Source: Fibrobacterota bacterium (GTDB lineage Bacteria; Fibrobacterota; Fibrobacteria; UBA11236; JADFYW01). From it: 64,000 nt of DNA. Location of the stretch: contig JBHPJW010000004.1 in NCBI GenBank assembly GCA_042567505.1, positions 1,151-65,150 on the forward strand. The letters are read 5' to 3'. The position numbers and the translations under genes are program-made. This document shows, piece by piece, positions 18,369 through 47,575 of this stretch; positions within the stretch are counted from its first letter, which is position 1; every line of letters begins with the position of its first letter. The notes under the pieces are model-generated. The model saw nothing but the letters and a program-made list of their open reading frames with translations, was not told the DNA's origin and did not search any database.

Positions 18369-18369
18369 A

Positions 18370-20784: not shown

Positions 20785-20828
20785 GACTGATTAACTACAG
20801 GGAATTGTTCTCTTAAGGAGGAAAAGCC

Positions 20829-21500: not shown

Positions 21501-21567
21501 TTACATACAATTCAAATCCAAGAAATGGTAAATGGTAATGCCGACATGTAAGCTAAAGGAGTGAAAA

Positions 21568-22572: not shown

Positions 22573-22593
22573 CATTTTAGGCAAGGAACAGTT

Positions 22594-23370: not shown

Positions 23371-23390
23371 AACCTGTAAAGGAAATCCTT

Positions 23391-24332: not shown

Positions 24333-24351
24333 TTTAATCAGGATTAAAGAG

Positions 24352-28211: not shown

Positions 28212-28328
28212 TGAAATCGAGCATAATGTATATCCATTGACATGAACACAAAATTAATATGATATCATTTAGAAGAATGTGCTGATGATGTTCACCTTCA
28301 TCTCAGGCAGTAAACATTCGACAAAAGG

Positions 28329-32622: not shown

Positions 32623-33537
32623 GTGCCAACAAAAAAGACTCACTGGATAATTCTTTTATATCATGATGTGTCCTGGGAGGAAAATTCCTTTATCAACAGG
32701 ATTGGAGGGACTTGCCCACCAGATATCTTCAGGGAACACTTGGATATCATCTCGTCGTATGGAAACATCGTTTCCATAAAGGAGGGGCTTGAGTCGACAT
32801 TGAAAAATGAATCTGCTGACGTGCTGTTCAGTTTCTGGTTTGATGACGGTTTTCGTGGCGTTAGGAAATATGCTATGCCGTATCTTAACGAATTTGGAGT
32901 GACAGGAGCAATATCGATTTGCAGTAAATTCATCTCAAAGGAGGACCTGTTTTGGCGTTCAAAATTGTCTTTTATCGCAGAAGTGGATGGGATGCGGTTC
33001 TTGAGATCCAAATTGAAGCAGGAGGGCTATGCCATTACCACGTCTGTAAGAGATTTTGTCATGGACAATATTTCCGGGGGAATAATCCGGAAAATTGATG
33101 AGGTGTATAAACTGTTTGCGAATGACATTGTGCAAATGGATGCGTTCAGGATATTCGATGATGTTGCCGGCATTAAAAAGCTTCATGCAAACGGCTGGGT
33201 TATTGCCAACCATACAGCTTCCCATTTTCCTATCTCGGAGAATAATTTTTTGCATAAGTCGCTTGAGGAATTTTATGAATGCGATAAGTTCGCACAAACA
33301 CATATGAATATTGACCCTGAGTTCTGGGTGGTTCCGTTTGACAGGGCCGCGAAAAGGTCGGAAAAGTTCCGGTCTTTATTTGAATCGTCCAGAAGCGGCA
33401 AACACCTTGTTTATGTTGGAAATAGACCAAACACCAGGGAAAATTTATCCCGGAAAAAGTTGTTTCGGTTCGGAGCAAAAATCCTGGCGGAGAAGGAGTT
33501 CAAGGAAGCTGTGGAAATAATCTTAAGTGGTTTATGA
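32623..33537 (+). CDS. Polysaccharide deacetylase (NodB-homology) family protein
   Basis: FWFDDGFRGV (the TFDDG-type motif) and NHTASH (H-S/T-x-x-H). GTG start. Confidence 0.7.
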   Translation: MPTKKTHWIILLYHDVSWEENSFINRIGGTCPPDIFREHLDIISSYGNIVSIKEGLESTLKNESADVLFSFWFDDGFRGVRKYAMPYLNEFGVTGAISICSKFISKEDLFWRSKLSFIAEVDGMRFLRSKLKQEGYAITTSVRDFVMDNISGGIIRKIDEVYKLFANDIVQMDAFRIFDDVAGIKKLHANGWVIANHTASHFPISENNFLHKSLEEFYECDKFAQTHMNIDPEFWVVPFDRAAKRSEKFRSLFESSRSGKHLVYVGNRPNTRENLSRKKLFRFGAKILAEKEFKEAVEIILSGL

Positions 33538-34667
33538 AAAAAAGAATACCATTCAATAAAACATTTATTACCGGAAAAGAATCCGGCTATATTTCGCGTT
33601 CGGTTAAAAAGGGGGAAATTGAAGGGGGAGGCGTATTTGCCCGGAAATGCGAGAAATGGCTTGAGAACGTACTGAAAACAAAGAAAGCTTATCTTACCAA
33701 TTCCTGTACCGCGGGAATGGAGATGGCGGCTCTTTTGATGGGAGTTAAACGCTCTCATGAAATCCTTATGCCGTCTTTTACGTTCACCTCAACTGCGAAT
33801 GCCTTTTTATTGCGGGGAGCGGTTCCGGTGTTTATAGACATACGGGAAGACACACTGAACATAAACGAAGATAAAATTGAAGAGAGAATTTCAGAAAAGA
33901 CAAAAGCCATTTGTCCTGTCCATTATGCCGGTATCGGATGTGAAATGGAGAAAATTTTAAAGATTGCCCGAAAAAACCATCTCCTGATTGTTGAAGACGC
34001 GGCTCATGCTGCTATGGCGAGATACAAAAAGAAATATCTGGGAACTATAGGAGACATCGGTGTATACAGTTTCCATAACACAAAGAATATCAGTTCAGGT
34101 GAAGGCGGAGCGATTTTAATTAACAATCTTGAATATATAGAAAGAGCGGAAGTAATAAGGGAAAAAGGCACTAACCGGAATAAGTTCCTACGGGGCGAAG
34201 TTGATAAATACGAATGGGTCGATATAGGAAGCAGTTTTTTAGTCTCTGAGATTATCGCCGCTTATCTCTATGCCCAGCTTGAAAAAGGGGACATGATTAC
34301 CAAAAAAAGGGTGGATTGTTGGAATAATTATTATCATGGTTTGAAAAATCTGGGAAAGAAAGGTGACTTGACACTGCCTAGTGTGCCGGCAGGATGCCGT
34401 CATAACGGCCATATTTTTTATCTCCTGACAGAAAATCGGAAAATCCGGGATGCATTAAAAGATCACCTGTCCAAAAAAGGCATTCAGGCGGTTTTTCATT
34501 ATGTTCCATTGCACTTATCTCCCATGGGCAAGTCGCTGGGGTACAGGGAAGGGCAGTTGAAAACAACAGAATCAATCAGCAAGCGTATGCTCAGATTGCC
34601 ATTATATCCTTCCTTATCAAAAAGCGACCAGCAGTATATCATAAAGGCCGTCAAGGGCTTTTTCTAA
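33534..34667 (+). CDS. WecE/RffA-family dTDP-4-keto-6-deoxyhexose aminotransferase
   Basis: N-terminus RIPFNKTFITGKESGYI...GGGVFARKCEKWLE parallels the E. coli WecE N-terminus. Also has EDAAHA and the PLP-lysine context YSFHNTKNISSGEGG. ATGA overlap with the upstream gene. Confidence 0.8.
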   Translation: MKKRIPFNKTFITGKESGYISRSVKKGEIEGGGVFARKCEKWLENVLKTKKAYLTNSCTAGMEMAALLMGVKRSHEILMPSFTFTSTANAFLLRGAVPVFIDIREDTLNINEDKIEERISEKTKAICPVHYAGIGCEMEKILKIARKNHLLIVEDAAHAAMARYKKKYLGTIGDIGVYSFHNTKNISSGEGGAILINNLEYIERAEVIREKGTNRNKFLRGEVDKYEWVDIGSSFLVSEIIAAYLYAQLEKGDMITKKRVDCWNNYYHGLKNLGKKGDLTLPSVPAGCRHNGHIFYLLTENRKIRDALKDHLSKKGIQAVFHYVPLHLSPMGKSLGYREGQLKTTESISKRMLRLPLYPSLSKSDQQYIIKAVKGFF

Positions 34668-35732: not shown

Positions 35733-36917
35733 TTGAAAATCGCGTACCTGAATACCAGCCTGAATCCGGGTGGGGTCGCCACGTTGATGAAAAATCTGCT
35801 GCCCGAACTCGTCAAGCATGGTGTACATAGTGAACTCATCCTCACCCGGCAGCGGGGATTGCTGGCCGAGGTAATTGAGAAAGAAGGATATAAGGTCCAC
35901 CAATGTTTGCAGCATTGGCGATACAAATTTCCCTTATCGGACAAACTCGGGAAAAAGATCCGCGAGAGCGCAAAATGGTCCTTCTGGATCAGGCTGGCGA
36001 AGGTAATCAGGAAAATCAAGCCGGATATAGTGCATAGCAATGCTCATGGCATGTTGTGCACCTCCCAACTGCTTGGCGCCCGGATGGCCGGCGTGCCGTT
36101 TGTTTTGCGGATTGGCTCGCCCAGCAGCACCTACCAGTCCACCTGGAGAGGTAAAGACCTGTTCTGCCGCCTTTTGAGGCCCTGCGACAGGATTTTCGGA
36201 GTGAGCAAAAGTATATACGACGCTTATCCCGATTTTCTTGGAAAGGCCGGCAATAACGTAGTGGCTTCTGATGAGGGGATACCTAATGGCATTGCCGATC
36301 CGGGATTAAGAAACCAGGATCATAATCTTAACATAAGATCGGAATTGGGTATTCCCCGGGAAGATATCGTTTTGGGAAGCATAGGCAGGTTTGTTCCGGA
36401 AAAACAGTATCAGGACCTGATTGCGGCGGCCGCTAATATTATTAAGTCAGGCAGCCCGGTCCATCTTATCCTGGTGGGCTCAGGTTCATACTTATACGCT
36501 CTGAAAAACATCACCAGGGAGCTCGACCTGTCTGCTCGCGTGCATTTTGTCGGCGCTCAGACAAATCCGTCACATTGGTTGAATGTCATGGACATGTTTG
36601 TCTATTCGTCAGAATTCGAGGCGTTTCCGAATTCTATCCTGGAAGCCATGGCGCAGGGGATTCCTGTGATAGCCTCAAACGTGTACGGCAACAGGGACTT
36701 GATCCGGCATGAAGAGAACGGCCTGCTGTACCCTGGTTCAGACAGGGCCGCTTTGACCGCGTCTATCCAGCGTCTGATAGATGCTCCTGAGTTGAAAGAA
36801 AGGTTATGGCAACGCGCCAGGCGCGATTATCTGGAAAAATACCAGGTCTCGATATGCGCCCAGAACTATTTGAACCTGTATGAGGCCATGCTGGCGCAAA
36901 AGAACGGGAACAATTGA
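35733..36917 (+). CDS. GT4-family glycosyltransferase
   Basis: MKIAYLNTSLNPGGV N-terminus, and SSEFEAFPNSILEAMAQGIPVIASNVYG (E-x7-E). TTG start. Confidence 0.8.
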   Translation: MKIAYLNTSLNPGGVATLMKNLLPELVKHGVHSELILTRQRGLLAEVIEKEGYKVHQCLQHWRYKFPLSDKLGKKIRESAKWSFWIRLAKVIRKIKPDIVHSNAHGMLCTSQLLGARMAGVPFVLRIGSPSSTYQSTWRGKDLFCRLLRPCDRIFGVSKSIYDAYPDFLGKAGNNVVASDEGIPNGIADPGLRNQDHNLNIRSELGIPREDIVLGSIGRFVPEKQYQDLIAAAANIIKSGSPVHLILVGSGSYLYALKNITRELDLSARVHFVGAQTNPSHWLNVMDMFVYSSEFEAFPNSILEAMAQGIPVIASNVYGNRDLIRHEENGLLYPGSDRAALTASIQRLIDAPELKERLWQRARRDYLEKYQVSICAQNYLNLYEAMLAQKNGNN

Positions 36918-36949
36918 CATTTTACCTGTTTCCGGAGAACGTCTGAAAA

Positions 36950-38386
36950 ATGCTTTTTAATTCACTTGAATTTGTCTTTTTCCTGCCCCTGGTGGTTTTA
37001 GGGTATTCCTGCCTCCCTCCAAAGGCCCGGCTGCTGCTGTTGCTTTCGGCCAGCTATTACTTCTACATGTGCTGGAAGATAGAGTATATATTTTTAATTC
37101 TCACCTCCACTTTGGTAGATTATGTCGCCGGTATTCAGATAGAAAAACATCAGCTTCCGGCAAAGAAGAAAGCATACCTTTATCTCAGTTTGTTCATCAA
37201 TCTGGGGCTTTTATTCTTTTTCAAATATTTCAACTTCTTCAGTGAGAATGTTAATTTCGTTTTTAACAAATTTAACCTGTTTCACAATCTTCCCTATTTC
37301 AACATTGCCCTGCCCATAGGCATCTCTTTTTACACCTTCCAGACACTCAGCTACACCATAGATATATATAGAGGAAAAGCAAAAGCAGAGAAGGACCCCA
37401 TCGTGTTCGCTCTTTATGTTTCCTTTTTTCCCCAGCTGGTGGCAGGGCCCATAGAAAGGGCCACCCGGCTGGTCCCTCAATTGAAGAAATTGAATAAAAT
37501 CACGTTTTCAAATTTTTGCGAGGGTAGCCAGTTGATGCTCTGGGGGTTTTTCAAGAAACTCGTCATCGCGGACCGGCTGGCGGATTATGTTAATAAAGTT
37601 TATAATAATCCTCACTCTTCCTATGGCGTTCCCATCATTGTGGCCACCTACTTTTTCGCCTACCAGGTGTATTGCGATTTTTCCGGGTATACCGACATTG
37701 CGCGCGGCACGGCAAAAATATTCGGAATAGACCTGACCATAAACTTTAACAGGCCTTATTTTTCAAAGACCTTTACCGAGATATTCAAACGCTGGCATAT
37801 GTCTTTGACAACCTGGATTTATGAGTACCTTTTTTCCCCCCTTCTGCTGGCGACCAGGGGATGGGGAAGACTGGGGCTTTTCTTTTCCCTTGGCGTGACC
37901 TTTTTCCTCAGCGGTTTATGGCATGGAGCCGCCTGGAACATGGTCATGTGGGGAGTGGTGGCCGCCACCCTTTTATGCCTGGACGAATTACTGAAAAAGC
38001 CCAGGAAATGGTTGAGCAAGAAAATGCCTCTTTTTGCGTTCAACGGCTTGAGTATTTTTATCACCTTCCATCTCTGGTGTTTCGCCATCATGTTCTTCAG
38101 GGTGAACACCATCGGACATGTGCCGGTCCTGTTCAGGAATTTTTTCAGTCTGGAAAAGTTCGTGTTCGGGATAAACATCACCATGGGCGTTTATGAGATT
38201 ATGATAGGCGTCATTGCCATAATCATACTGGAAACGGTGCATGTTCTTCAGGAAAACAAGTGGGTTTCCTTTGAATGGAAGGACTATTCGTTCTGGAGCA
38301 AGGCCTCCATGGCTTACGCGCTTTTATTGGCTATCCTGCTATTTGGGCAGTTTAATTTAACGGAATTTATCTACTTTCAGTTCTAG
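36950..38386 (+). CDS. MBOAT-family membrane O-acyltransferase (AlgI/DltB-like)
   Basis: Typical N-terminus MLFNSLEFVFFLPLVV, more than 10 TM spans, and conserved His context LSGLWHGAAWN. Confidence 0.85.
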   Translation: MLFNSLEFVFFLPLVVLGYSCLPPKARLLLLLSASYYFYMCWKIEYIFLILTSTLVDYVAGIQIEKHQLPAKKKAYLYLSLFINLGLLFFFKYFNFFSENVNFVFNKFNLFHNLPYFNIALPIGISFYTFQTLSYTIDIYRGKAKAEKDPIVFALYVSFFPQLVAGPIERATRLVPQLKKLNKITFSNFCEGSQLMLWGFFKKLVIADRLADYVNKVYNNPHSSYGVPIIVATYFFAYQVYCDFSGYTDIARGTAKIFGIDLTINFNRPYFSKTFTEIFKRWHMSLTTWIYEYLFSPLLLATRGWGRLGLFFSLGVTFFLSGLWHGAAWNMVMWGVVAATLLCLDELLKKPRKWLSKKMPLFAFNGLSIFITFHLWCFAIMFFRVNTIGHVPVLFRNFFSLEKFVFGINITMGVYEIMIGVIAIIILETVHVLQENKWVSFEWKDYSFWSKASMAYALLLAILLFGQFNLTEFIYFQF

Positions 38387-38472
38387 TGTTCCCCATCCAG
38401 CAAACACGGCCGTTCCGGGGAGAGCTATGCTCGTACAATGAGCCTGCGGATCGCATTTAGTTTTTTTAAAGT

Positions 38473-39423
38473 ATGAAAACCGTGACCAAAACTTCCATAT
38501 TCATTTGCCTAGGAATTTCCCTATTCGGTCTGCTCTGGGTTCTGGGGAATTCGTACCATCCTTTTCAGTTCAACAGAACAAGGATCCAAAACATATATGA
38601 CAATGCGGAAAACCTGGAAGCCATCGCTGCCGGATCTTCCCAGGCGGGCGGGATAAACTTTCACCATTTGGGTATGCGGGGGTATGGATGCTGGAGGGGC
38701 GGAAGCGACATGTTCGAGACCAAATACCAGATTGAATCGGTTCTTTCCCGGGCGCCTCATTTGAACATGGTTTTTTATTCGGTTTCGTATACCTCGCCAT
38801 TTCTGGACAACGCACTGGACTTTATTCCTGATCGCTCAAAGCTCCGAATAAGGCATTACGCCTCTTTTGGCTCCTACAGGCTCATCAATGGTGATTTGAA
38901 AAATTTTATTCTGGGAAAATGTTCAGCCCTGATAAGGCGGGATCACTGGAAGCCGGTTATTTGGCCCGGAGCGCGCAAAAAAAACACGGCCACCACCGAC
39001 CAGTTCATATTTAAGGATGAAAAGTCCCTGACACCGGGTGAGATAGAAAAGCACGCTTTGCGCAGGACAAAAGAAGCCCTGAAACTGGTTTACCAGTCCA
39101 GGAAATTAAAAGCCGATTTGAAAGAGGGTATTTACCGCCAGACCGGAGAATTGATAAGAAAACTGAAGGCCAGGGGGGTCAGAATAATTTTTTTCACCAG
39201 TCCCTATCATCACAGGTATACAGAGAATTTCGACAGGAAGGTAGTTGAGGAAATGCGAACTTTCATGGCCCGTATCTCTACGGATTTCCAGGTCCCCTAT
39301 CTGGATTTTTCTGAGCATGAAAGGTTTAGAATAACTGAACAATGCTTTTTGAACAGTGATCATTTGAATAATCATGGCAGGCGGTTGCTGGCCGAAGAAA
39401 TTAAAAAAAGGATAAAATTATAA
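38473..39423 (+). CDS. Membrane-anchored DltD/AlgJ/SGNH-like accessory protein of the MBOAT
   Basis: Single N-terminal TM. Has an AAGSSQ segment (possible nucleophile block) and C-terminal NSDHLNNHG (a D-x-H block as in SGNH/AlgJ-type proteins). Its position immediately after the MBOAT supports the call. Confidence 0.5.
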   Translation: MKTVTKTSIFICLGISLFGLLWVLGNSYHPFQFNRTRIQNIYDNAENLEAIAAGSSQAGGINFHHLGMRGYGCWRGGSDMFETKYQIESVLSRAPHLNMVFYSVSYTSPFLDNALDFIPDRSKLRIRHYASFGSYRLINGDLKNFILGKCSALIRRDHWKPVIWPGARKKNTATTDQFIFKDEKSLTPGEIEKHALRRTKEALKLVYQSRKLKADLKEGIYRQTGELIRKLKARGVRIIFFTSPYHHRYTENFDRKVVEEMRTFMARISTDFQVPYLDFSEHERFRITEQCFLNSDHLNNHGRRLLAEEIKKRIKL

Positions 39424-39427
39424 TATC

Positions 39428-41005
39428 ATGAAATTAACTTTTGTAAATCTTTATTCGTCAGAAACAGTCGCAAGATACCTTCTTTCATCATATATCCTAA
39501 AAGCCTATTTGCTTAAACGATTTGCCGATACACCGGACCTCACGGTAACTATCCTCAATTTCCGGAATACGGCTGATGCAGCCAAAGTATGCGAAAAAAT
39601 TAAAAAAGACCAACCCGATTTTGTGGGGTACAGCTGTTACACATGGAATGTGGAAAAAGTATTTGACATTATTAAAGGCCTCAAGGATACTCCGGGAATG
39701 GGGCATGTCCTGGGCGGTCCGGAAATAAACATGAGCAGGATTGAGTCGCTGAAGGATTCCTGCTCGCGTAAATATTTTATCATAGGCCCGGGCGAGAAAA
39801 TCCTCGCTGATTTTGTGAGCTATCTGTATAAGGTGTCTGAGCAGAGGCCGGCGGAAGTCCCCGAGGGGGTGGCGTTTTGGAGTGAAGACAAAATAATATA
39901 TAAGGAATCAACCCATCAGTTTTCCAGTTTGGATGAAATACCGTCGGTTTATCTCAGCGGAACGCTGGAGGAGAAATTTTACGCGCGTCAGCAGGCTTTT
40001 CTGGAAACATCCAGGGGATGTAAGTTCAAATGCAATTACTGTATGTACCATAAGAACCTCTCTTCCGTTTCGTATTATTCGCTGGACCGGGTAATGGCCG
40101 AAATCGATTATCTGATTCTTGATAAGGAAATCTGGCAATTGAGGATCTTTGATTCTGACTTCGCATCAGACCTTTCGAGGGCAAAAAAAATTATCGAGCA
40201 CCTGATCGCCATAAAGCCTACATGTGATGTTTTTCCCTGGATTTACTGGGAGTTCACCTTCAGTGGAATCGATGAGGAGTTCATCCGGCTTTCAGGGTCG
40301 TTGAAGGACCGTGAGAGGATCCTGAACAGTTCCACCATAGAGCCGCAGGACAAGCCGCAGTGTTATTCAGATATGCTGGAGGGCTATCACATCATAAACT
40401 GCATCGGCATCCAGTCATTTAACCCAAAGGCCTTAAGGTCTGTGAACCGGATGCGGGTCCATACCCAGGAGTTTTTCGGATTCATGGAGACGGTCAATCA
40501 CCACAATGTAGTGCTGAAGATCGATTTTATTCTGGGGCTGCCCTTTGAGACATTGGATTCATATTTCGAGGGCCTTGAATTATTTCTGCCGTATTTAAAA
40601 GATACAGACCATGTGCTGAACATTCATCTTCTCCAGATTCTACCGGGATCCAAGCTTGAGAGGAAATGTGAAGAATTCCATATAAGGTATGCGCTGGAGG
40701 CGCCGAATTTTGTCTTTGCCACCAACACCCTGCCGGAAAAGGAGCTGAGGTACGCCACCAAATTAACAGCGGTGTTGTTCAGGGTGGTTAACTCTCCGCT
40801 GCGGAAGCTTATATACGAGACAAAGCGAAGCTCCGGCAAGGCGTTTTTGGAGATAATCCGGGATTTGTATGAATCAATATCGGCCAAAGAGGAGTTTAAG
40901 ACTTCCCAGCTTGTGCAGAAGGATTTCGTGGACGATTATTATTGGAACGGCGATATCTACAAAGAAATAACCTCTGCATACCTGGCTGATTATTTCAGGA
41001 CCTGA
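39428..41005 (+). CDS. B12-binding-domain radical SAM enzyme (class B type)
   Basis: N-terminal Rossmann-like cobalamin-binding region (DFVGYSCYTWN) and the radical SAM cluster motif SRGCKFKCNYCMY (CxxxCxxC). Confidence 0.8.
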   Translation: MKLTFVNLYSSETVARYLLSSYILKAYLLKRFADTPDLTVTILNFRNTADAAKVCEKIKKDQPDFVGYSCYTWNVEKVFDIIKGLKDTPGMGHVLGGPEINMSRIESLKDSCSRKYFIIGPGEKILADFVSYLYKVSEQRPAEVPEGVAFWSEDKIIYKESTHQFSSLDEIPSVYLSGTLEEKFYARQQAFLETSRGCKFKCNYCMYHKNLSSVSYYSLDRVMAEIDYLILDKEIWQLRIFDSDFASDLSRAKKIIEHLIAIKPTCDVFPWIYWEFTFSGIDEEFIRLSGSLKDRERILNSSTIEPQDKPQCYSDMLEGYHIINCIGIQSFNPKALRSVNRMRVHTQEFFGFMETVNHHNVVLKIDFILGLPFETLDSYFEGLELFLPYLKDTDHVLNIHLLQILPGSKLERKCEEFHIRYALEAPNFVFATNTLPEKELRYATKLTAVLFRVVNSPLRKLIYETKRSSGKAFLEIIRDLYESISAKEEFKTSQLVQKDFVDDYYWNGDIYKEITSAYLADYFRT

Positions 41006-41162
41006 TGCCGCCTGCTGAAGGAGACAAAACACTGAAACCGGATGACAGCCTTTAGAAACAAATCATGTTCATCCTGTAAAACGGACACTTAAAAGTTTTA
41101 CTTCTTAGTGAGAGTTATGCAGAGCCTAAATTATTCTTTTAAATTTTAACCGGACACTACTG

Positions 41163-42896
41163 ATGCGATTTAATGAGTTAAGGAAAAATCTGAAACGGGA
41201 TTTCTCTAACTTGAAATCGCTTAAAGTCGCTTTACTGGGGGACAGCGCCACGCAACTTCTTTCACAGGCCATCAGGGGTTATGGATTCGAGTCCCATTTG
41301 AATTTAGAAATGTTCGAAGCCGATTATGATCAAATAGAGCGTCAGGTTTTTGATCCGTCATCTGAGCTTTTTTCCCATAAACCGGATTTTGTTATCATTT
41401 TCCATTCCGCCTCCAGGTTGAAGCGGAGTTTCTGCCGGTTGAGCCATGAACGCAGGGGGGGGCTCGCAGAGGAGCACATTGAAAAAGTTGATAAAATATA
41501 CAATTCAATATTGTCAAAACACGATTGCAGGGTGATATATTTCAATTTCCCCGAAGATCACGATGAAGTGTTTGGCAACTACGCAAATAAGGTGCCGTCT
41601 TCATTTCTTTATCAAATCAGGAAATTGAATTACGAGCTCATGAACTTCAGTCAGACACACAACAATTTGTTTATTAATGATCTTTGCGCTCTGCAGAGCC
41701 GGTATGGGAAAGACTTCGCGTCGGACGCGAAAATGCGCGTCAATTACGACATGCCCTTCAGCCTGGAATTCCTGCCCCTGGCGGCAAAAAATATTGTAGA
41801 GATTATTGAAAGCATTATCGGGAGAATAAACAAATGCCTGATTCTTGACCTGGACAATACCCTTTGGGGAGGTGTTATCGGAGACGACGGCATGGAAAAC
41901 ATACAAATTGGCGATTTAGGAATCGGAAAAGCCTTTACTGAACTCCAGTTGTGGATTAAAGATTTGAAAAAGAGAGGCGTCATACTTACCGTGTGCAGCA
42001 AAAATGAAGAGAGCGCGGCCAAGGAACCTTTTGAACATCACCCGGATATGGTATTGAGGCTGGAAGACATCTCTCTTTTTGTCGCAAACTGGAACAACAA
42101 GGATGTTAATATTAAGTTCATAAAAGATACTTTACATATTGGATATGATTCCATGGTGTTTCTTGATGATAGCCCTTTTGAAAGAGGTCTGGTGAAAGCT
42201 TCCCTTCCGGATGTAAGCGTACCCGACCTGCCCGAGGATCCTGCGGAGTACCTTGATTATTTAACAAAACAAAATTTGTTTGAGACAGGTTCTTTTTCCC
42301 AGCAAGACGAAAAACGCACTCAGCAGTATCAACAGGAATCCCACAGGAGGGTCGCGCAGGATAAATTTTTAAATGAGGCTGATTTTCTGGCCAGCCTGGA
42401 CATGATAGCCGAGGTTGAGACCTTTACTTCCTTTAATACTCCCAGAGTAGCACAGTTGACGCAGCGATCGAACCAGTTCAACCTGCGCACGGTAAGGTAC
42501 ACTGAAGATGAGATCGCCCGGATATCGTCATCAGACAAATATCTTACGCTGGCTCTGTCCCTGGAAGACAAATACGGAGACTACGGGCTTATCAGCGTGG
42601 TGATTTTGGAAGACCAAGGTCTCTCTCTTTTTATAGACACCTGGATAATGAGTTGCAGAGTGCTGAAAAGGGGGATGGAGCATTTTACCCTGAGCCGGAT
42701 AGTCCGGCTGGCCAGGGAAAACAGGAAAGAAAAAATAATAGGAGAATATATCCCCACCGCCAAAAATGCCATAGTAAAAGACCATTATTTGAATCTGGGC
42801 TTTAAAAATGACGGCGGCAACTGGGTGTTGACTCCCGAAGACCACAGGGAGGAAGAATATTACATTAACCTCAAAAAAGGAGAAAAACACACATGA
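41163..42896 (+). CDS. FkbH-like HAD-IIIC family enzyme (carrier-protein loader candidate)
   Basis: LILDLDNTLWGGVIGDDG (HAD motif I as in the FkbH domain), VCSKNEE, and C-terminal WIMSCRVLKRGME containing the conserved Cys context of FkbH-type proteins. Confidence 0.75.
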   Translation: MRFNELRKNLKRDFSNLKSLKVALLGDSATQLLSQAIRGYGFESHLNLEMFEADYDQIERQVFDPSSELFSHKPDFVIIFHSASRLKRSFCRLSHERRGGLAEEHIEKVDKIYNSILSKHDCRVIYFNFPEDHDEVFGNYANKVPSSFLYQIRKLNYELMNFSQTHNNLFINDLCALQSRYGKDFASDAKMRVNYDMPFSLEFLPLAAKNIVEIIESIIGRINKCLILDLDNTLWGGVIGDDGMENIQIGDLGIGKAFTELQLWIKDLKKRGVILTVCSKNEESAAKEPFEHHPDMVLRLEDISLFVANWNNKDVNIKFIKDTLHIGYDSMVFLDDSPFERGLVKASLPDVSVPDLPEDPAEYLDYLTKQNLFETGSFSQQDEKRTQQYQQESHRRVAQDKFLNEADFLASLDMIAEVETFTSFNTPRVAQLTQRSNQFNLRTVRYTEDEIARISSSDKYLTLALSLEDKYGDYGLISVVILEDQGLSLFIDTWIMSCRVLKRGMEHFTLSRIVRLARENRKEKIIGEYIPTAKNAIVKDHYLNLGFKNDGGNWVLTPEDHREEEYYINLKKGEKHT

Positions 42897-43135
42897 ATAC
42901 TGAAGACGTACTCAAAGAAATGAACGAGATTTTTATTGATGTGCTTGAACTTGATGATATAGACTTAAAAGCCGAGACCACCACAGATGATGTGGAAGAG
43001 TGGGATTCCCTGACACATATTCCCCTGATAGCCGCCATAGAGAGCCATTTTAAAATTAAGTTCAAATCATCGGAAATTCAGAACTGGAAAAATGTCGGCG
43101 AAATGTGTGACGCGGTCATCGGCAAAGCCGGGTAG
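42893..43135 (+). CDS. Acyl carrier protein (second)
   Basis: 80 aa with EEWDSLTHIPLIAAIESHF, the same WDSL-type serine context as the ACP at 18135. ATGA overlap with the FkbH-like gene. Confidence 0.75.
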   Translation: MNTEDVLKEMNEIFIDVLELDDIDLKAETTTDDVEEWDSLTHIPLIAAIESHFKIKFKSSEIQNWKNVGEMCDAVIGKAG

Positions 43136-43219
43136 GATCAGCAAGAGATCAGTCTCCAACAATTGGTGTTTGCGTGACTGCGGCACAACACTAAAGATAA
43201 CCACAACCTGAGGTGCCCA

Positions 43220-44152
43220 ATGGAAAAAACGGAACAGGAACGCGTTGATCATTTCGTCGCCCGGTTTAGGGAACGAGCCCCGTTGTTTTGCAAAGAGATA
43301 CAGCGCGCCTTGAAGGAGGATGGGGATCTATTCTCCGAACTGGCAGGTCCCATGCTGGCCTGGGCGAGCGTTATGCTGGGGCCATCCTACGAAGACATCC
43401 TTATAGACAAATATTCCGACTTTGTGCTCAACGTGAACATGTCCCAGTTTGAATACGAGAAAAAAGGTAAATATCAATTCAGCAGTTGGCAGGAAGTGTA
43501 CGAGAAAACCTATGATCAGAAGGATTTTATGGATTCCTATCATTGGGGAGTGTATACTCATACCTTTGCCTGGTACCATCATCTTAAAATCTATGAGTTT
43601 TTCAGGGACAAGTTCCTGCTCCCCATGGCTGCGCGAAAAGAAGGCGGCCGGTTGCTCGATCTGGGGGCGGGATCCGGCATCTGGCATTTGCTGGCGAACC
43701 GCCACTTGCCCCAATGGGACATCACTGCGGTAGATATCAGTGAGACGTCCATCGGCCTGAGCAGGGAAATGGCCCAAAAGACAGTGCCTGAAGCCTCGAT
43801 TGAACACTTTTGCGCAGATGCTACTGCATTCCAGGCATCAGCGCCGGCTGATGCGGCAATATGCTGCTTCCTTATGGAACATCTTGAACGTCCGGAGGAA
43901 GTTTTGAATAATATCTCCAGGAACTTGAAAGAGCGCTGCTTTGCCTTTGTGACTTGCGGGCTCACAGGAGCCGAGATTGATCATATTTTTGAATTCAAGC
44001 GTGAGTCCGAGCCCATACTTATGGCAGAGCAGGCGGGTCTGCGGGTGGTGCGGATGTTCTCTGCCTCGCCGTCCCGGGTGCTGCAAAAGCGAAAATACCT
44101 TCCCAGGTCACTCGCCATGGTAGTACAGAAGCGGAAAAATGAAATCTGGTGA
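43220..44152 (+). CDS. Class I SAM methyltransferase
   Basis: Motif I LLDLGAGSGIW, acidic residue in AVDISE, and motif CCFLMEHL. Confidence 0.7.
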   Translation: MEKTEQERVDHFVARFRERAPLFCKEIQRALKEDGDLFSELAGPMLAWASVMLGPSYEDILIDKYSDFVLNVNMSQFEYEKKGKYQFSSWQEVYEKTYDQKDFMDSYHWGVYTHTFAWYHHLKIYEFFRDKFLLPMAARKEGGRLLDLGAGSGIWHLLANRHLPQWDITAVDISETSIGLSREMAQKTVPEASIEHFCADATAFQASAPADAAICCFLMEHLERPEEVLNNISRNLKERCFAFVTCGLTGAEIDHIFEFKRESEPILMAEQAGLRVVRMFSASPSRVLQKRKYLPRSLAMVVQKRKNEIW

Positions 44153-44271
44153 GTCCTTTCGCAACCGGGCGGCGCTGAAAACCCGCGATTCTGCGGCCCG
44201 AGATCTGCAGCCCCAGCCCCAGCAGAAGCACAGGGATCTGCGCGACAGTCCCTGGAAAAAGAACACAAGTC

Positions 44272-45018
44272 TTGTCCGTTTCTCATAGCTATACAGACAA
44301 AGATTACTGGGACCGTTTTTTTTCCGGTCAACCGCGGAAAGTGGTAGACGCGGCGCCTTTTGCCGATGTATTTGAAAAGTTCTTAATTAAAGATAATCAG
44401 AAAACCGTTCTGGAAGTGGGTTGCGCCGGCGGAGAATTCCTCTGCCATATCGCCAAACATTTTAAATACCGGGCGCATGGCATTGATTTTTCCGATGAGA
44501 TTGATACCACAGGCCGGATGTTTGCATATAATGGTTTGCCGGCGCCGGTTCTCTATCGGGAAGATTTTTTTTCCTGGAACAGCCGGTTTCAATTTGATTT
44601 GGTATGCTCGTTTGGTTTCGCCGAGCATTTCGACGATTTGTCCCTTGTCGTAAAAAAACATGCGGACCATGTAGCCCCCGGGGGGAAACTTATACTTTCG
44701 GTGCCTAATTTTTCCAAACTCCAATATGTTTTCCACCTGTTGGTGGAACCGCAAAGCCTGAAACATCATAATTTGAAAATAATGAACCTGAAAGCCTTTC
44801 AACGGGCTTTTGAACCCCTTACCTTTCAAATTCTGCACTTATCTTATTATGGCGCGTTTGGATTCTGGACCGTTAAAAAACCTGACAATGCCTGGAGCAG
44901 ATGGTGGGCGGGGCTTATCAAGAGGTCCGGTAAAACCTGGAAGCGGATCTTCAGGCACAAACCCAACCGCTGGGTGTCTCCCCACATAATCTGCGTCGCC
45001 CAAAAACCTGCCGAATAA
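44272..45018 (+). CDS. Class I SAM methyltransferase
   Basis: DYWDRFF N-terminus, motif I VLEVGCAGGEF, GIDFS, and FGFAEHF. TTG start. Confidence 0.7.
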   Translation: MSVSHSYTDKDYWDRFFSGQPRKVVDAAPFADVFEKFLIKDNQKTVLEVGCAGGEFLCHIAKHFKYRAHGIDFSDEIDTTGRMFAYNGLPAPVLYREDFFSWNSRFQFDLVCSFGFAEHFDDLSLVVKKHADHVAPGGKLILSVPNFSKLQYVFHLLVEPQSLKHHNLKIMNLKAFQRAFEPLTFQILHLSYYGAFGFWTVKKPDNAWSRWWAGLIKRSGKTWKRIFRHKPNRWVSPHIICVAQKPAE

Positions 45019-45065: not shown

Positions 45066-46151
45066 ATGGAAAGCGCCGTTGATACGGGGTGGAGGAAAGT
45101 ATTAGAGCATGATCCAACGCATGAATCAGGCTCGAACGGCCCCTTGGCCTCAATCATAATTCCCTTTTATAACCGGTCTGAGTTGCTCTGGGAGACGCTG
45201 GATTGTGTGAAGAACCAAACCCATTCTCCCCTTGAGCTGATACTGATTGACGACGGCTCAGAAGATGACATTGCCTCAGACATCAAGGCATCGCTGGAAG
45301 CGTTCGGGGAAAAATGGATGTTGGTGCGGATGGACAAAAACCAGGGGCCGGGAAAGGCGCGGAAACTCGGTCATCAGCTGGCCGCTGGAAAGTACCTTCA
45401 GTTCCTGGATTCTGATGATATCATTTCACCTGAGAAACTGAAACTGCAGGTTGGTTTTCTGGAAGACCATCCTGAGGTCATCATGACCTATGCCTTGACC
45501 AGGTACATGGATGAGGGGGAAACGGCCCCGGAGCAGCGCGTGTTAGGACGCACAGACCAGGATTTCAACCGGATTCTTCCTCATGTGATACCGAGGATGA
45601 TATGGCAAACTTCCAGCTGCCTGTGGCGATCCAGTGCCGTCAGTCCGGATTTCTGGAAACCGCTGTATGGCCCGGAAGACGTGCTTTTTGATTTTTATGC
45701 CGGATTGGCGGATAAACCTGTTGCCCGTACTCCCGGGGACAAGGTGTTGTTGTACAAGAGGGTTGATGAATCAGGGATTTCCCACGGCATAGGACTGAAC
45801 CCGGCATATCAGCAGGAAATATTGAAATATTTTGATTACGTGCATGCGGAATGTGTAAATAATAAAAAGCTGGATTCCAACCTTATCCGCCGCATTATGG
45901 ACTTTCAGGCGCAAAAGTACGCCAATAAAATCACCACTTTTTTGAATTTCAGAAGAGTCCCGGAAGTCGAACACTGTATCAGGATGGTTAGGGAAATAAA
46001 TGGGCGGTTTCTTCCGCCTGACGTAAGGATATCCCTGTTGATTAACAGGATTTTTAAAACCTACGTTGGCTTTACTTTTCTGAGAAAATGGCGCTGGGTG
46101 AAAAAATTAACCTATCGCAAGATTAAAAGCATGTTCAACAGTCCCCGATAA
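45066..46151 (+). CDS. GT2-family glycosyltransferase
   Basis: ASIIIPFYNRSELL, LILIDDGSEDD, GPGKARKLG and FLDSDD. Confidence 0.8.
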   Translation: MESAVDTGWRKVLEHDPTHESGSNGPLASIIIPFYNRSELLWETLDCVKNQTHSPLELILIDDGSEDDIASDIKASLEAFGEKWMLVRMDKNQGPGKARKLGHQLAAGKYLQFLDSDDIISPEKLKLQVGFLEDHPEVIMTYALTRYMDEGETAPEQRVLGRTDQDFNRILPHVIPRMIWQTSSCLWRSSAVSPDFWKPLYGPEDVLFDFYAGLADKPVARTPGDKVLLYKRVDESGISHGIGLNPAYQQEILKYFDYVHAECVNNKKLDSNLIRRIMDFQAQKYANKITTFLNFRRVPEVEHCIRMVREINGRFLPPDVRISLLINRIFKTYVGFTFLRKWRWVKKLTYRKIKSMFNSPR

Positions 46152-46171
46152 GCCGATCATTTACCGTAAAC

Positions 46172-47575
46172 ATGACAGAACAGCTTAGGATACTGCATAT
46201 CAACAACCATGATCTCGGCGGAGGGGCCGCCCGGGTGGCATGGGAGCTTCATCACGCCCAGAGGAAACGGGGCCATGATTCATGGCTGGCGGTGGGAAGC
46301 AGGAGGTCGGAAGAGGAACAGATTCTTCAGATTCCCGGGATTGCCACAGCCTGGAAAAGGGCCTGCGAAGGGATGCGAGGGAAGCTGGCTCCGTTCGAAA
46401 GAGAGGTGAAAGGCGTATGGCGGTTGATAAGCCTGTTAAAAACCTGGTCAGTCCCTCAGAGAGCCATAGAAGATCTCATGGGCAGGGAAAATTTCTACGC
46501 CCCTGGAACATACAAGATTCTTTCCCAGATAGGTTATAAGCCGGACATCATACACTGCCACAATCTGCAGGGCAGATATTTTGACCTCAGGATTCTGCCC
46601 CAATGGAGCAGGGACATCCCGACCGTCCTCACCATGCATGATCCCTGGCTTTTGAGCGGCCACTGCACCCATTCTTTTGAATGCGATCGCTGGAAGACAG
46701 GATGCGGGGCGTGCCCGGACCTGGATATCTTTCCCAGGATAACCAGGGACGGGACCCGTCGGAACTGGAACAGGAAGCGGAACATATACCGGAAAAGCCG
46801 CTTGTATGTGGTAGGAGACTGCAGCTGGGTTCATGAGAGAATGAAGGAATCAATGCTTGGCCCGGCAGTGGCGGGTTCGGAAGTCATTTTGCTGGGAGTT
46901 GATTTGTCGCTGTTCAAGCCCCGGGATAAGACTGACATCCGGAAACAAATGGGCCTGCCTTTAGACCGTCCGGTTCTGCTCTTTGCCGCCAGCACCATCA
47001 AACGGAACCAGTGGAAAGATTACCTCACCATGCAGGAGGCCGTGAAACTGGTCGGTGAGCGCCTGGGAACGGGACGGATTCTTTTCATGGCCCTGGGCGA
47101 GCAGGCGGAACCGATTATGGAGGAGAATTATGAAATACGTTTTTTCCCCTATGAAACTGATCCCGTGGTGGTAGCCGGATTCTACCAGGCTTCTGATCTT
47201 TATCTTCACGCCGCCCGGGCTGAGACGTTTCCCCAGGCCCCCATTGAGTCCCTGGCCTGCGGGACGCCGGTAATAGCCACAGCCATCGGAGGCATTCCCG
47301 AAGGAATAAAGGGACTCCGGAACGGGGAGGACGGGATTGATGGTGATAGTAACACGTATCCTGAACAGGAAGCAACAGGGGTGCTTGTGCCTCTGGGAAA
47401 CGCGCGAGCTATGGCTGGGGCGATTATGAAATTGATATCAGATAATCCATTAAGAATCCGGCTGGGGGAAAATGCCAGGAAGGACTGCGTTAGCAGGTTT
47501 GATCAGGAGCGGGTTGTCAACCAATACCTTGCGCTCTACAGGAGCTTGATCGGTTCGCGTTCTTCGATCGGATAA
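46172..47575 (+). CDS. GT4-family glycosyltransferase
   Basis: LRILHINNHDLGGGAARVA N-terminus, and C-terminal ARAETFPQAPIESLACGTPVIATAIGG. Confidence 0.8.
   Translation: MTEQLRILHINNHDLGGGAARVAWELHHAQRKRGHDSWLAVGSRRSEEEQILQIPGIATAWKRACEGMRGKLAPFEREVKGVWRLISLLKTWSVPQRAIEDLMGRENFYAPGTYKILSQIGYKPDIIHCHNLQGRYFDLRILPQWSRDIPTVLTMHDPWLLSGHCTHSFECDRWKTGCGACPDLDIFPRITRDGTRRNWNRKRNIYRKSRLYVVGDCSWVHERMKESMLGPAVAGSEVILLGVDLSLFKPRDKTDIRKQMGLPLDRPVLLFAASTIKRNQWKDYLTMQEAVKLVGERLGTGRILFMALGEQAEPIMEENYEIRFFPYETDPVVVAGFYQASDLYLHAARAETFPQAPIESLACGTPVIATAIGGIPEGIKGLRNGEDGIDGDSNTYPEQEATGVLVPLGNARAMAGAIMKLISDNPLRIRLGENARKDCVSRFDQERVVNQYLALYRSLIGSRSSIG

Follow-up and report, generated by a model that had tools for sequence, protein, structure and literature searches.

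Can a bacterium of Gram-negative type pass an acyl group from a carrier protein through its membrane and onto a glycan? Such delivery was known previously only for Gram-positive Dlt D-alanylation, and no description of a carrier-fed FkbH/ACP/MBOAT/SGNH system was found in the searchable literature. The question is raised by a cassette in a Fibrobacterota surface-sugar locus, which seems to assemble a small acid derived from glycerate on a carrier for an exported glycan, and which lies in the 64,000-nucleotide stretch of DNA analysed here (the window).

Gene content of the cassette

Five co-directional ORFs on the + strand (36950-43135) encode an MBOAT, an SGNH/DltD-like partner, a B12-radical-SAM enzyme (rSAM), an FkbH-type loader and an acyl carrier protein, ACP1 (Table 1). 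A sequence-only reading of this DNA had named the same set (MBOAT, single-TM partner, B12-rSAM, FkbH-like protein and ACP), and all five were found at the coordinates it gave. The extent it drew holds for these genes but ends too early, omitting two SAM methyltransferases, MT1 and MT2 (43220-45018), which are probable members of this module. Glycosyltransferases flank the cassette co-directionally (35733-36917 upstream, 45066-47575 downstream) and a Wzm/Wzt ABC transporter is encoded in its locus. Profile searches of the window (Pfam/NCBIfam) found neither a PKS nor a FabH-like tetronate enzyme and, as the earlier reading had it, no FkbK/FkbI-type dehydrogenases.

Table 1 Coordinates of the cassette genes and of predicted functional residues of the MBOAT
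Feature	Position in window	Strand	Basis
MBOAT acyltransferase, 478 aa, non-PLGG carrier-linked type	36950..38386	+	Pfam MBOAT E=6.5e-19
MBOAT His283, RWH motif, equivalent to DltB H289	37796..37798	+	DltB alignment; invariant in alignments A4/A5
MBOAT residues 296-307 (SPLLLATRGWGR), in place of PLGG(N/S)R	37835..37870	+	aligns with DltB horizontal helix HC
MBOAT His325, WHG motif, predicted catalytic, equivalent to DltB H336 and PatA H315	37922..37924	+	DltB alignment; invariant in A4/A5
MBOAT C-terminal FIYFQF, an FxYxxF acyl-shuttle motif; Tyr475 predicted acyl acceptor	38366..38383	+	sequence; homolog ends
Membrane-anchored SGNH/DltD-like acyltransferase partner, 316 aa	38473..39423	+	608 relatives; AF2 fold; invariant residues
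Cobalamin-dependent class B radical SAM enzyme, predicted C-methylation of ACP-bound acid	39428..41005	+	B12-binding and Radical_SAM domains
FkbH-type HAD-IIIC phosphatase/acyl loader, 577 aa; D229/D231, K313, D335/D336, Cys498	41163..42896	+	TIGR01686, FkbH_N
Dedicated acyl carrier protein ACP1, 80 aa; putative phosphopantetheine site Ser39 (WDSL)	42893..43135	+	PP-binding E=3.4e-7
Class I SAM methyltransferase MT1, predicted O-methylation of ACP-bound acid	43220..44152	+	Methyltransf_25/23/11 ~1e-13
Class I SAM methyltransferase MT2, tentative member	44272..45018	+	Methyltransf_23 4e-14

The loader carries both motifs reported for it earlier, DLDNTLWGG at residues 229-237 and SCRV at 497-500, and matches FkbH_N (E=5e-71) and HAD-IIIC (E=5e-18), while residues 3-380 match PDB 3slr BF1531 at 1e-132. 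Loss of the HAD residues or the Cys would have told against the sequence-only reading; they are at least 97% conserved among 37 homologs, down to 28% identity. Characterised FkbH enzymes convert 1,3-bisphosphoglycerate to glyceryl-S-ACP (PMC7489565, PMC7901079). The subfamily, with its extra FkbH_N domain, has no characterised member (3slr is itself annotated 'uncharacterized protein BF1531') and its tailoring genes differ by locus (MaoC+SDR, MT, rSAM, MR_MLE), so that the loader could take another phosphorylated or hydroxy acid and the delivered group would not be glycerate-derived. We give this only a slim chance: over its full length the protein reaches 282 bits in TIGR01686 (E=4e-84; cutoff 146.65) with every HAD residue and the Cys conserved, MaoC+SDR partners fit the known formation of D-lactyl-ACP from an FkbH-loaded unit in PKS loading modules (PMC7901079), and MT partners fit a di-O-methylglyceroyl group (PMC3068675).

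The start of ACP1 overlaps the end of the loader gene (ATGA) with an AGGAG ribosome-binding site upstream, and its PP-binding match and WDS39L motif bear out the WDSL carrier first described. MBOAT-linked loci have carriers of the ACP1 type (47-64% identity, serine motif conserved), while loci without MBOAT (hexapeptide/SDR; L035 and L036) have ACP2-type carriers; the window holds both. The second carrier, ACP2 (18090-18368), is accompanied by its own AMP-ligase, SDR, GNAT and LbH transferase.

The rSAM contains B12-binding (E=4.9e-9) and Radical_SAM (E=2.9e-8) domains, both past the Pfam cutoffs, and the motif C198-x3-C-x2-C, in agreement with the cobalamin-type CxxxCxxC enzyme already proposed. 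Its best NCBIfam match, the KedN5 C-methyltransferase family, falls below cutoff. Orthologs (43-55% identity) adjoin an FkbH-like gene in 7/7 sampled loci. Homologs of MT1 adjoin FkbH or ACP in L006, L008, L011, L014, L015, L018 and L033, and MT2 is 34% identical to a methyltransferase of the archaeal locus L036 whose gene adjoins FkbH-ACP-SDR-PPTase.

Recurrence of the gene set and its SGNH partner

Had the genes not co-occurred elsewhere, the case for a cassette would have collapsed. In a survey of the FkbH subfamily (members with at least 48% identity; 29 evaluable distinct loci) an MBOAT gene lay within ~5 kb in 27 loci from six or more phyla, including Bacteroidota, Spirochaetota, Ignavibacteria, Verrucomicrobiota, Clostridia and Fibrobacterota, and FkbH, ACP and MBOAT occurred together in 27/29. 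The whole set is found again in L033 (FkbH 58%, ACP 55%, rSAM 55%, an MT, a non-PLGG MBOAT 38%, SGNH family protein 1e-10). The five-gene set is thus real, its recurrence across many genomes being far above chance, and its conserved core is FkbH, ACP, MBOAT and an SGNH-like protein. Contiguous orders include ACP-MBOAT-FkbH (L002, L119, L120) and FkbH-ACP-MBOAT-SGNH (L005, L007, L013, L118).

The related loci are mostly polysaccharide loci with Wzx/Wzy or glycosyltransferases, and in the window the cassette is co-directional among glycosyltransferases in a Wzm/Wzt locus, all of which speaks for the locus polysaccharide as acceptor and against the same machinery acylating a membrane lipid, LPS core/lipid A or peptidoglycan. 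That the acceptor is one of these seems to us hardly probable, though L119 and L120 lie in a housekeeping context lacking polysaccharide genes or any other acyltransferase, their ACP-MBOAT-FkbH-MaoC string adjoining MR_MLE and FA_hydroxylase genes without an SGNH partner, and known MBOAT/SGNH acceptors are varied (peptidoglycan, LTA, alginate, cellulose; PMC12148441).

By sequence alone the partner gives just a weak Lipase_GDSL_2 match (0.0026) and a single N-terminal TM helix (residues 2-27). An exhaustive HMMER search gathered 608 relatives, members of which match Lipase_GDSL_2, SGNH, DUF1574 and DltD models; Ser56, Asp79 and His297 are invariant across the family, and Gly70 and Asn113 are also SGNH-site residues. 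The AF2 model (pLDDT 94.7) is closest by Foldseek to DltD (3bma, 7dxm, 6pfx, 6o93) and next to PatB. A C-terminal block does exist where the sequence-only reading saw 'D-x-H', but the block is N294-S-D296-H297, with family consensus D-S-D-H, and corresponds to SGNH block V (DxxH), as its alignment to DltD indicates; position 294 is often Asn (28/73 members). A partner-family gene lies directly 3' of an MBOAT gene in 38/63 metagenome loci and in 12 FkbH loci. MBOAT and SGNH protein form an autonomous pair, found mostly without FkbH.

The MBOAT and its putative carrier-docking segment

The MBOAT matches DltB structures 8jem and 6bug at E~2e-19 and the DltB family TIGR04091 at E=1.8e-41, while a profile built from linked MBOATs matches DltB at 8e-53. 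It was first described as AlgI/DltB-type; MBOAT membership is borne out by Pfam and by the His motifs aligning with DltB, for one of which, the equivalent of His325, a catalytic role is published (PMC12148441), but the architecture is not DltB-like, having the FxYxxF acyl-shuttle motif fused at the C-terminus as in PatA and AlgI (PMC12148441). All complete MBOAT homologs adjoining FkbH have F[IVL]Y[FL]xF as their C-terminus.

Where unlinked MBOATs have PLGG(N/S)R, the window MBOAT has the hydrophobic SPLLLATR. Non-PLGG and PLGG forms number 30 and 7 among linked MBOATs and 6 and 69 among unlinked ones (Fisher p=7.5e-15, without correction for phylogeny); at least one non-PLGG copy is present in 30/30 linked loci, and all seven linked PLGG copies are the second MBOAT of their locus. 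The replaced segment aligns with DltB helix HC, on which DltC docks through contacts with M302, V305, I306, M309 and K312 (PMC11035591). Here the linked consensus PLVIAL falls over DltB RLVIVL, and window L299/L300, which fill the Gly-Gly columns of unlinked MBOATs, fall over V305/I306, with the residue register relative to DltB shifting slightly between linked and unlinked profiles. In L070 an ACP with an AMP-ligase loader precedes a non-PLGG MBOAT, so the signature tracks carrier proteins and not FkbH alone. The alignment of this hydrophobic segment with the DltC-docking helix lends independent, though sequence-based, support to the earlier inference that the ACP feeds the MBOAT.

Could the cassette instead combine two unrelated functions? 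The MBOAT/SGNH pair would then be an acetyl-CoA O-acetyltransferase like PatA/PatB or AlgI/AlgJ, and the FkbH/ACP/rSAM/MT product would N-acylate an amino sugar in the cytoplasm through an LbH, GNAT or other transferase of the locus, as for C. jejuni di-O-methylglyceroyl-Pse. The pair's autonomy fits this, as does the published view that non-Dlt MBOAT/SGNH pathways use acyl-CoA (PMC12148441). So does a reverse survey of 31 loci with adequate flanks, in which the nearest relatives of the window MBOAT (41-56% identity) lay near FkbH/ACP in just 2, whereas FkbH-linked MBOATs are only 30-41% identical to it; this seeming conflict is resolved because the window MBOAT carries the carrier-linked non-PLGG signature. 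Elsewhere rSAM-FkbH pairs mostly accompany cytoplasmic delivery genes (DegT, WbqC, hexapeptide, GNAT), seldom an MBOAT, and the window encodes homologs of the SDR (53%), hexapeptide transferase (52%), 313-aa protein (38%) and DegT (53%) of L035/L036, several such delivery genes lying 15-20 kb upstream of the cassette. Those upstream N-acylation-type genes, however, have a carrier (ACP2) and AMP-ligase loader of their own, and the L035/L036 ACPs are ACP2-type, not ACP1-type. With an MBOAT in nearly all FkbH-subfamily loci, frequently right next to the ACP and in some cases where neither amino-sugar genes nor another acyltransferase are present, and with a DltB-like docking segment in the window MBOAT, we regard two separate functions as unlikely.

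Proposed route of the acyl group and comparison with known systems

The reading we favour, as reasonably likely and without experimental evidence, is an O-acylation system in which a carrier feeds the MBOAT/SGNH pair and the group delivered is a methylated glyceroyl, with a Dlt-like donor and PatA-like architecture. While gene content, motifs, folds, conserved linkage and the MBOAT signature are observed, all chemical steps (the rSAM reaction included) are inferences drawn from sequence and gene context, as are the acyl identity and the acceptor. FkbH would take a phosphorylated C3 acid of glycolysis (1,3-bisphosphoglycerate, if it acts like characterised enzymes); its HAD domain would dephosphorylate the acid, which would pass as a Cys498 thioester to the phosphopantetheine of ACP1 Ser39, giving glyceryl-S-ACP. 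On the carrier, MT1 and probably also MT2 would O-methylate the acid, and the rSAM would most likely add a C-methyl group. Acyl-ACP1 may then dock on the horizontal helix at the cytoplasmic face of the MBOAT (residues ~296-307), the phosphopantetheine arm entering the tunnel, with His325 catalysing transfer to Tyr475 of FIYFQF on the periplasmic side. Ser56 of the partner, with His297, is predicted to receive the acyl group and esterify a hydroxyl of the Wzm/Wzt-exported glycan. The downstream half is complete, comprising FxYxxF with Tyr475, the predicted catalytic His and an SGNH partner that has Ser/His and matches the DltD and PatB folds, the mechanism being taken from PMC12148441.

As in Dlt, a cytoplasmic loader would charge a small dedicated carrier protein, an MBOAT would pass the acyl group across the membrane to the Tyr of FxYxxF and an anchored SGNH-fold protein, the counterpart of DltD, would hand it on to the polymer (PMC12148441); both DltB His motifs recur in the window MBOAT, PLGG is absent from the carrier-docking helix in both (PMC11035591), and the partner fold is closest to DltD. 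Unlike Dlt, the loader is an FkbH-type HAD phosphatase/transferase and not the adenylating DltA, the predicted cargo is a (modified) hydroxy acid and not D-alanine, the cassette includes enzymes for tailoring on the carrier (rSAM, MTs), its host is of Gram-negative type (Fibrobacterota) and its setting a polysaccharide locus, and the MBOAT, at 142.6 bits, is far from the DltB equivalog cutoff of 375. The cassette has no DltX microprotein because FxYxxF is fused to the MBOAT C-terminus. In that respect it resembles PatA/PatB, AlgI/AlgJ(X,F) and WssH/WssI, with their two extra MBOAT C-terminal helices bearing FxYxxF, catalytic His, SGNH partner that is a separate single-TM protein using a Ser nucleophile, and extracytoplasmic polymer target (PMC12148441). 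Those systems use acetyl-CoA and no carrier, whereas the window couples loader, ACP and tailoring genes to an MBOAT lacking the PLGG(N/S)R that is near-universal among unlinked MBOATs sampled.

A chemical precedent for FkbH with methyltransferases is C. jejuni flagellin, whose pseudaminic acid bears 2,3-di-O-methylglyceroyl and whose glycosylation locus has an fkbH-domain gene, cj1302 (PMC3068675, PMC7099621); no experimental link of cj1302 to the modification was found in the C. jejuni literature searched. There the acid is amide-linked to a cytoplasmic nucleotide-sugar precursor (CMP-sugar; PMC3068675, SugarBase preprint) without involvement of an MBOAT, a route resembled by the rSAM-FkbH loci L035, L036 and L121. 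FkbH/OzmB-type polyketide loaders (methoxymalonyl-ACP, tetronates, D-lactyl modules) likewise pair an FkbH domain with HAD motifs and Cys with an adjacent stand-alone ACP. They differ in that the window lacks the polyketide enzymes and its acyl-ACP is predicted to be used by a membrane acyltransferase on a glycan, while the MaoC+SDR partners of related loci mirror lactyl-forming loading modules.

Conservation of the cassette core

The five co-directional ORFs that the sequence-only reading had placed at 36950–43135 are present as described (table below) on this Fibrobacterota MAG contig, and NCBI holds 100%-identical entries for both the FkbH-like protein and the B12-binding radical SAM enzyme (rSAM). 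The FkbH-like protein scores 282.5 bits on TIGR01686 (cutoff 146.65) and 66.1 on the HAD-IIIC model (cutoff 35.75). Its catalytic Cys and HAD residues, whose loss would have counted against a role in loading, are all kept: D229/D231, S279-K280-N281, K313, D335/D336 and S497-C498-R499-V500 show conservation of at least 97% across 37 homologs, whose identity falls to 28%. The family is very large, with more than 8000 homologs at E≤1e-20 and about 60% identity across phyla. The N-terminal two thirds of the window protein (residues 3–380, window 41169–42302) are ~60% identical to PDB 3slr, the 'uncharacterized protein BF1531' of Bacteroides fragilis, in which the FkbH_N and HAD domains are already solved with no function attached. 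Profile searches found no AMP-binding enzyme in 36950–45018, where the loader is FkbH-type, and no acyl-CoA dehydrogenase or 3-hydroxyacyl-CoA dehydrogenase domain in any cassette gene, in agreement with the earlier remark that FkbK/FkbI-type dehydrogenases are missing. Because these enzymes, which take glyceryl-ACP to hydroxymalonyl-ACP, are absent, methoxymalonyl-ACP chemistry is unlikely and was rejected.

Coordinates and assignment of the cassette, the second carrier system and the exporter
Feature	Position in window	Evidence or remark
GNAT	17148–18065	Acetyltransf_6
ACP2	18090–18368	Likely start about 18135; PP-binding 4e-8; 'DVWDSLKH'
SDR	18370–19119	
AMP-binding ligase	19231–20784	No other AMP-binding gene in this part of the locus; lies with ACP2, some 17 kb upstream of the cassette
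LbH/hexapeptide transferase	20829–21500	Two methyltransferases also in the ACP2 system (17148–25575)
Conserved 313-aa protein	23391–24332	
DegT	24352–25575	
Wzm/Wzt	27333–29636	Wzt with Wzt_C domain
MBOAT	36950–38386	Co-directional; Pfam MBOAT 6.5e-19; TIGR04091 (DltB) 1.8e-41
SGNH/DltD-like partner	38473–39423	Co-directional; single-sequence match to GDSL weak
rSAM	39428–41005	Co-directional; B12-binding and Radical_SAM domains, C198xxxCxxC
FkbH-like loader	41163–42896	Co-directional; TIGR01686 over curated cutoff; FkbH_N domain
ACP1	42893–43135	Co-directional; PP-binding, WDS39L; ATGA overlap with FkbH
MT1	43220–44152	Methyltransferase
MT2	44272–45018	Methyltransferase

The survey of FkbH homologs took in 31 reference-genome loci and others retrieved by an exact look-up of the protein (loci from other genomes have handles between L002 and L122). 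In nearly all of them FkbH adjoins an ACP1-type carrier, and in 27 of the 29 evaluable distinct loci (FkbH at least 48% identical) an MBOAT is no more than about 5 kb away, the exceptions being L032 and probably L008. The order FkbH-ACP-MBOAT-SGNH-like is found in L005, L007, L013 and L118; FkbH-ACP-MaoC-SDR-MBOAT-SGNH-like in L004, L009, L019 and L117; FkbH-ACP-methyltransferase, with an MBOAT nearby, in L006, L011, L014, L015, L018, L033 and the window; and ACP-MBOAT-FkbH-MaoC, preceded by a 33-aa ORF, in L002, L119 and L120, where it sits among housekeeping genes in the absence of polysaccharide genes and other acyltransferases. Co-occurrence as a unit, the check suggested with the sequence-only reading, holds for a core of FkbH, ACP, MBOAT and SGNH-like protein, but all five genes are rarely found together. 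Culturable species put forward as carriers of the minimal cassette are Pedobacter superstes, Paraflavisolibacter caeni, Tunicatimonas pelagia and Flavobacterium psychrotolerans. The string with the 33-aa ORF, in Ignavibacteria-like genomes, continues with MR_MLE and FA_hydroxylase genes (L119, 6081–12050; also L120 and L002, with 13 similar places reported); its neighbours include ComEC, no SGNH partner accompanies it, and the acceptor in such loci may be a lipid.

The protein encoded 86 bp downstream of the window MBOAT gave no significant match to related loci by tblastn and phmmer, and in a word-indexed protein search it matched nothing but itself. An exhaustive HMMER search recovered 608 relatives (254 at E≤1e-10), and a family profile search placed the MBOAT-adjacent protein of 12 surveyed loci in the same family. 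Alignment of 73 sequences shows S56, D79 and H297 to be invariant and G54, G70 and N113 nearly so, and the family therefore carries a complete S-G-N-H signature. The 'D-x-H' block noted previously does exist, but reads N-S-D-H; the family consensus is D-S-D-H, which is SGNH block V, and the (D/N)xxH block of the family profile aligns with the DxxH of DltD. Family members are matched by the Lipase_GDSL_2, SGNH, DUF1574 and DltD models (Pfam DltD in 8 of 73). The AF2 model (pLDDT 94.7) has a single N-terminal TM helix, and in Foldseek four DltD structures head its PDB fold matches, with SGNH esterases and PatB coming next; a search of viral structures gave generic SGNH esterases only. We conclude that it is a membrane-anchored SGNH/DltD-like acyltransferase partner; its DltD-type features (TM anchor, Ser-His-Asp, fold) place it in the fold class without making it an ortholog of DltD.

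A reverse survey of 80 metagenome loci around the closest relatives of the window MBOAT (41–56% identity) counts against a carrier-fed MBOAT: an FkbH homolog occurs in only 2 of the 31 loci with at least 2.5 kb on both sides. In 38 of 63 metagenome loci the gene immediately after the MBOAT belongs to the partner family, so that MBOAT and SGNH-like protein form an autonomous two-gene unit, mostly without a carrier system. Such a distribution is what would be expected of the main rival explanation, in which MBOAT and SGNH protein carry out an independent O-acetylation from acetyl-CoA while the ACP product is used in the cytoplasm.

MBOAT architecture and the segment between the conserved histidines

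His325 (WHG) and His283 (RWH) of the window MBOAT are invariant among the homologs aligned. FxYxxF is conserved in every complete MBOAT homolog examined, complete FkbH-adjacent copies ending in F[IVL]Y[FL]xF. PatA auto-acylates the Tyr of this C-terminal 'acyl-shuttle' motif before the SGNH partner receives the acyl group; the motif is missing from DltB, where the microprotein DltX serves instead, and a carrier protein is stated to be absent from all non-Dlt pathways (PMC12148441). The window MBOAT ends in FIYFQF (residues 473–478), as the FkbH-adjacent MBOATs do, and therefore has the PatA/AlgI architecture, not that of DltB. On its transfer side the cassette resembles PatA/PatB (catalytic His, C-terminal FxYxxF, adjacent SGNH partner), but it has a coupled carrier and an MBOAT without the PLGG motif. 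On the donor side it would work like Dlt, yet it has its own FIYFQF and lacks DltA and DltX, and its MBOAT falls below the cutoff of the DltB equivalog model (TIGR04091, 142.6 bits against 375); a true Dlt operon is ruled out by the missing DltA and DltX and by this score. Across the MBOAT gene (window 36001–38000) GC skew is ~0 and AT skew negative, against ~+0.16 upstream, a change that is untested but likely to stem from the Phe/Leu-rich composition of a membrane protein and not from foreign origin.

When MBOATs at loci with a carrier protein (linked) were compared column by column with those without (unlinked), one segment stood out, flanked by the two conserved histidines. Its sequence in unlinked MBOATs is 'RDYLY-IPLGG(N/S)(R/K)', whereas linked MBOATs have a hydrophobic stretch in place of the GG, followed by Arg (for example TPLSIYFRDYGK and TPIVLNRRYWGK); the window MBOAT has S296-P-L-L-L-A-T-R303-G-W-G-R. 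Non-PLGG and PLGG copies number 30 and 7 among linked MBOATs and 6 and 69 among unlinked ones (Fisher p=7.5e-15, with no correction for phylogeny). At least one non-PLGG MBOAT is present in all 30 linked loci, and the seven linked PLGG copies are without exception second MBOATs beside a non-PLGG one. The scarcity of FkbH in the reverse survey is largely explained by this division. In a neighbour-joining tree of 100 MBOATs most FkbH-linked copies fall in separate clades, with the window copy at a boundary; the tree is confounded by sampling and taxonomy and is suggestive only.

DltB, to our knowledge the only characterised carrier-dependent MBOAT, also lacks PLGG at this segment. DltC docks on its horizontal helix HC, making contact with M302, V305, I306 and M309 and forming salt bridges with K312 and R317 (PMC11035591). 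In pairwise alignment L299/L300 of the window MBOAT fall on DltB V305/I306 and R303 on K312, and the linked-MBOAT profile places 'tPLVIAL' on DltB 'MRLVIVL' (E=8e-53). The unlinked profile matches DltB more weakly (159 against 183 bits) and puts PLGG at the same part of the helix, slightly out of register. The PP-binding ACP1, with its WDS39L motif, is genetically coupled to an MBOAT that has a DltB-like hydrophobic docking segment. Nor is the signature confined to FkbH: in L070 a non-PLGG MBOAT comes immediately after an ACP that is probably loaded by an AMP-binding ligase, and the PLGG MBOAT of that locus has an SGNH partner to itself but lacks a carrier, so that the signature tracks carrier proteins in general. 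An acetyl-CoA donor without a carrier is at odds with both this signature and the genomic coupling of the MBOAT to FkbH/ACP, and we consider independent O-acetylation alongside cytoplasmic use of the ACP product unlikely, though biochemistry alone can decide.

In loci with two or three MBOATs (L004, L011, L015, L070, L106, L107 and L117) one copy is always non-PLGG and adjoins the ACP or FkbH, and the rest are PLGG and come with an SGNH partner of their own, which suggests that a single glycan receives two different esters, acetyl and a carrier-borne acid. Yet another form of the segment, 'YSLPY(I/V)KGKK', occurs in a small unlinked group (L052, L069, L088 and L110), in which FkbH and ACP were not found nearby; a DegT homolog is close in the first three.

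The loaded unit and its proposed transfer

Characterised FkbH enzymes of polyketide synthases convert 1,3-bisphosphoglycerate to glyceryl-S-ACP (PMC7489565); use of this substrate by the window subfamily, for which it is untested, is inferred from them. FkbH loading modules can also yield D-lactyl-ACP (PMC7901079), and the locus variants with MaoC and SDR would fit its formation; we found no literature for a bryostatin lactate-starter precedent. A methyltransferase lies directly beside FkbH/ACP in seven loci, the window having two, an arrangement that would fit O-methylation of the loaded unit. A chemical precedent comes from C. jejuni, in which pseudaminic acid carries 2,3-di-O-methylglyceroyl and the locus includes the fkbH-domain gene cj1302 (PMC3068675, PMC7099621).

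rSAM has the class B radical SAM layout of an N-terminal B12-binding domain and a CxxxCxxC core (PF02310, 36.5 bits, cutoff 32.1; PF04055, 34.5 bits, cutoff 29.5; C198KFKC202NYC205). It belongs to no characterised equivalog family, all NCBIfam matches being far under cutoff (best, the KedN5 family, 92 bits against 700), and methyl transfer as its reaction type is inferred only. Orthologs at 43–55% identity occur in many anaerobic lineages, and an FkbH-like gene adjoins the ortholog in 7 of 7 sampled loci, including those of a Methanospirillaceae archaeon and Ca. Scalindua (in L121 it is recognisable by BLAST only). An MBOAT is present in just one of the seven, L033, which holds a complete set: FkbH (58%), methyltransferase, ACP (55%), rSAM (55%), non-PLGG MBOAT and an SGNH family protein (1e-10). 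In the other six a more distant FkbH (28–33% identity) is accompanied by DegT, WbqC, hexapeptide or GNAT genes. With FkbH constant and MBOAT not, rSAM appears to act on the FkbH-derived unit whatever the delivery route. A third carrier type (97–108 aa, 'LDSLGF' motif) accompanies this distant FkbH subfamily in L034, L121 and L122; L121, with its CMP-sugar synthetase and DegT, is a locus of the nonulosonic-acid type and also contains an SDR, a GNAT, two rSAMs and two MaoC genes.

Bacteria often esterify their surface polymers outside the cytoplasm; D-alanylation aside, the MBOAT/SGNH systems known to us add only acetate from acetyl-CoA. In the carrier-fed mechanism that we propose, FkbH would load a glyceryl unit onto ACP1, MT1/MT2 and rSAM would methylate the bound unit, and acyl-ACP1 would dock on the MBOAT helix, the acyl group passing via His325 to Tyr475. 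The SGNH-like partner (Ser56/His297) would then esterify the glycan exported by Wzm/Wzt. Taken as a whole this mechanism is well supported by comparative evidence and we judge it probable, without experimental proof. Association of FkbH with MBOAT, DltB or AlgI is not described in the searchable literature, where the sole co-mention concerns cyanobacterial aeruginosins.

Whether the reading extends further is in our estimate evenly balanced: non-PLGG MBOATs would be a broad class, so far unrecognised, of trans-membrane acyltransferases that depend on a carrier protein and occur in many bacterial phyla, the helix segment acting as a donor-selectivity switch (Gly-Gly for CoA; hydrophobic for ACP docking, as in DltB). 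FkbH/ACP or ligase/ACP modules would feed glycerate-derived acids (glyceroyl, lactyl, O-/C-methylated glyceroyl) into glycan esters, with Dlt as one specialised member. If the cassette works as proposed, carrier-fed trans-membrane acylation would not be peculiar to Gram-positive teichoic acids and would occur widely, among other groups in Bacteroidota, Spirochaetota, Verrucomicrobiota, Fibrobacterota and Clostridia. Such a system would account for non-acetyl esters such as glyceroyl and lactyl on exported glycans (native gellan bears L-glycerate esters) and give a role to the uncharacterised FkbH-like family, BF1531 included. PLGG versus a hydrophobic helix would be a simple sequence marker predicting a CoA or carrier-protein donor from the genome. 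Ester decorations of glycans influence recognition by phages and by the immune system, as well as the physical properties of the polysaccharide.

The second carrier system and the wider locus

The ACP2 system resembles a pathway that N-acylates an amino sugar in the cytoplasm. The SDR, LbH transferase and 313-aa protein of this system share 36–53% identity with genes beside rSAM-FkbH in L035 (Bacillota) and L036 (archaeal), to which the DegT at 33534–34667 is also related; the single ACP of these two loci is ACP2-type, and the MBOAT-linked loci have ACP1-type carriers. The ACP2 system is self-contained with its own loader, therefore leaving FkbH and ACP1 to serve the adjacent MBOAT. In other systems Wzt_C, the domain found on the window Wzt, reads a terminal glycan modification.

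A ~310-aa protein recurs with a hexapeptide transferase and DegT in four loci (window 23391–24332, L032 2322–3245, L035 11181–12104 and L036 13353–14303) that span different phyla and one archaeon, with WbqC in three; it has no confident family and only weak GH130/GH32N-like matches. The stretch at 12716–51442 is unusually rich in modification genes, with at least 10 genes that encode a methyltransferase domain (two FkbM-type and one TylF-type among them), three DegT aminotransferases, a formyltransferase-like gene (31592–32566), a polysaccharide-deacetylase-like gene (32623–33537) and an asparagine-synthase-like amidotransferase (49568–51442).
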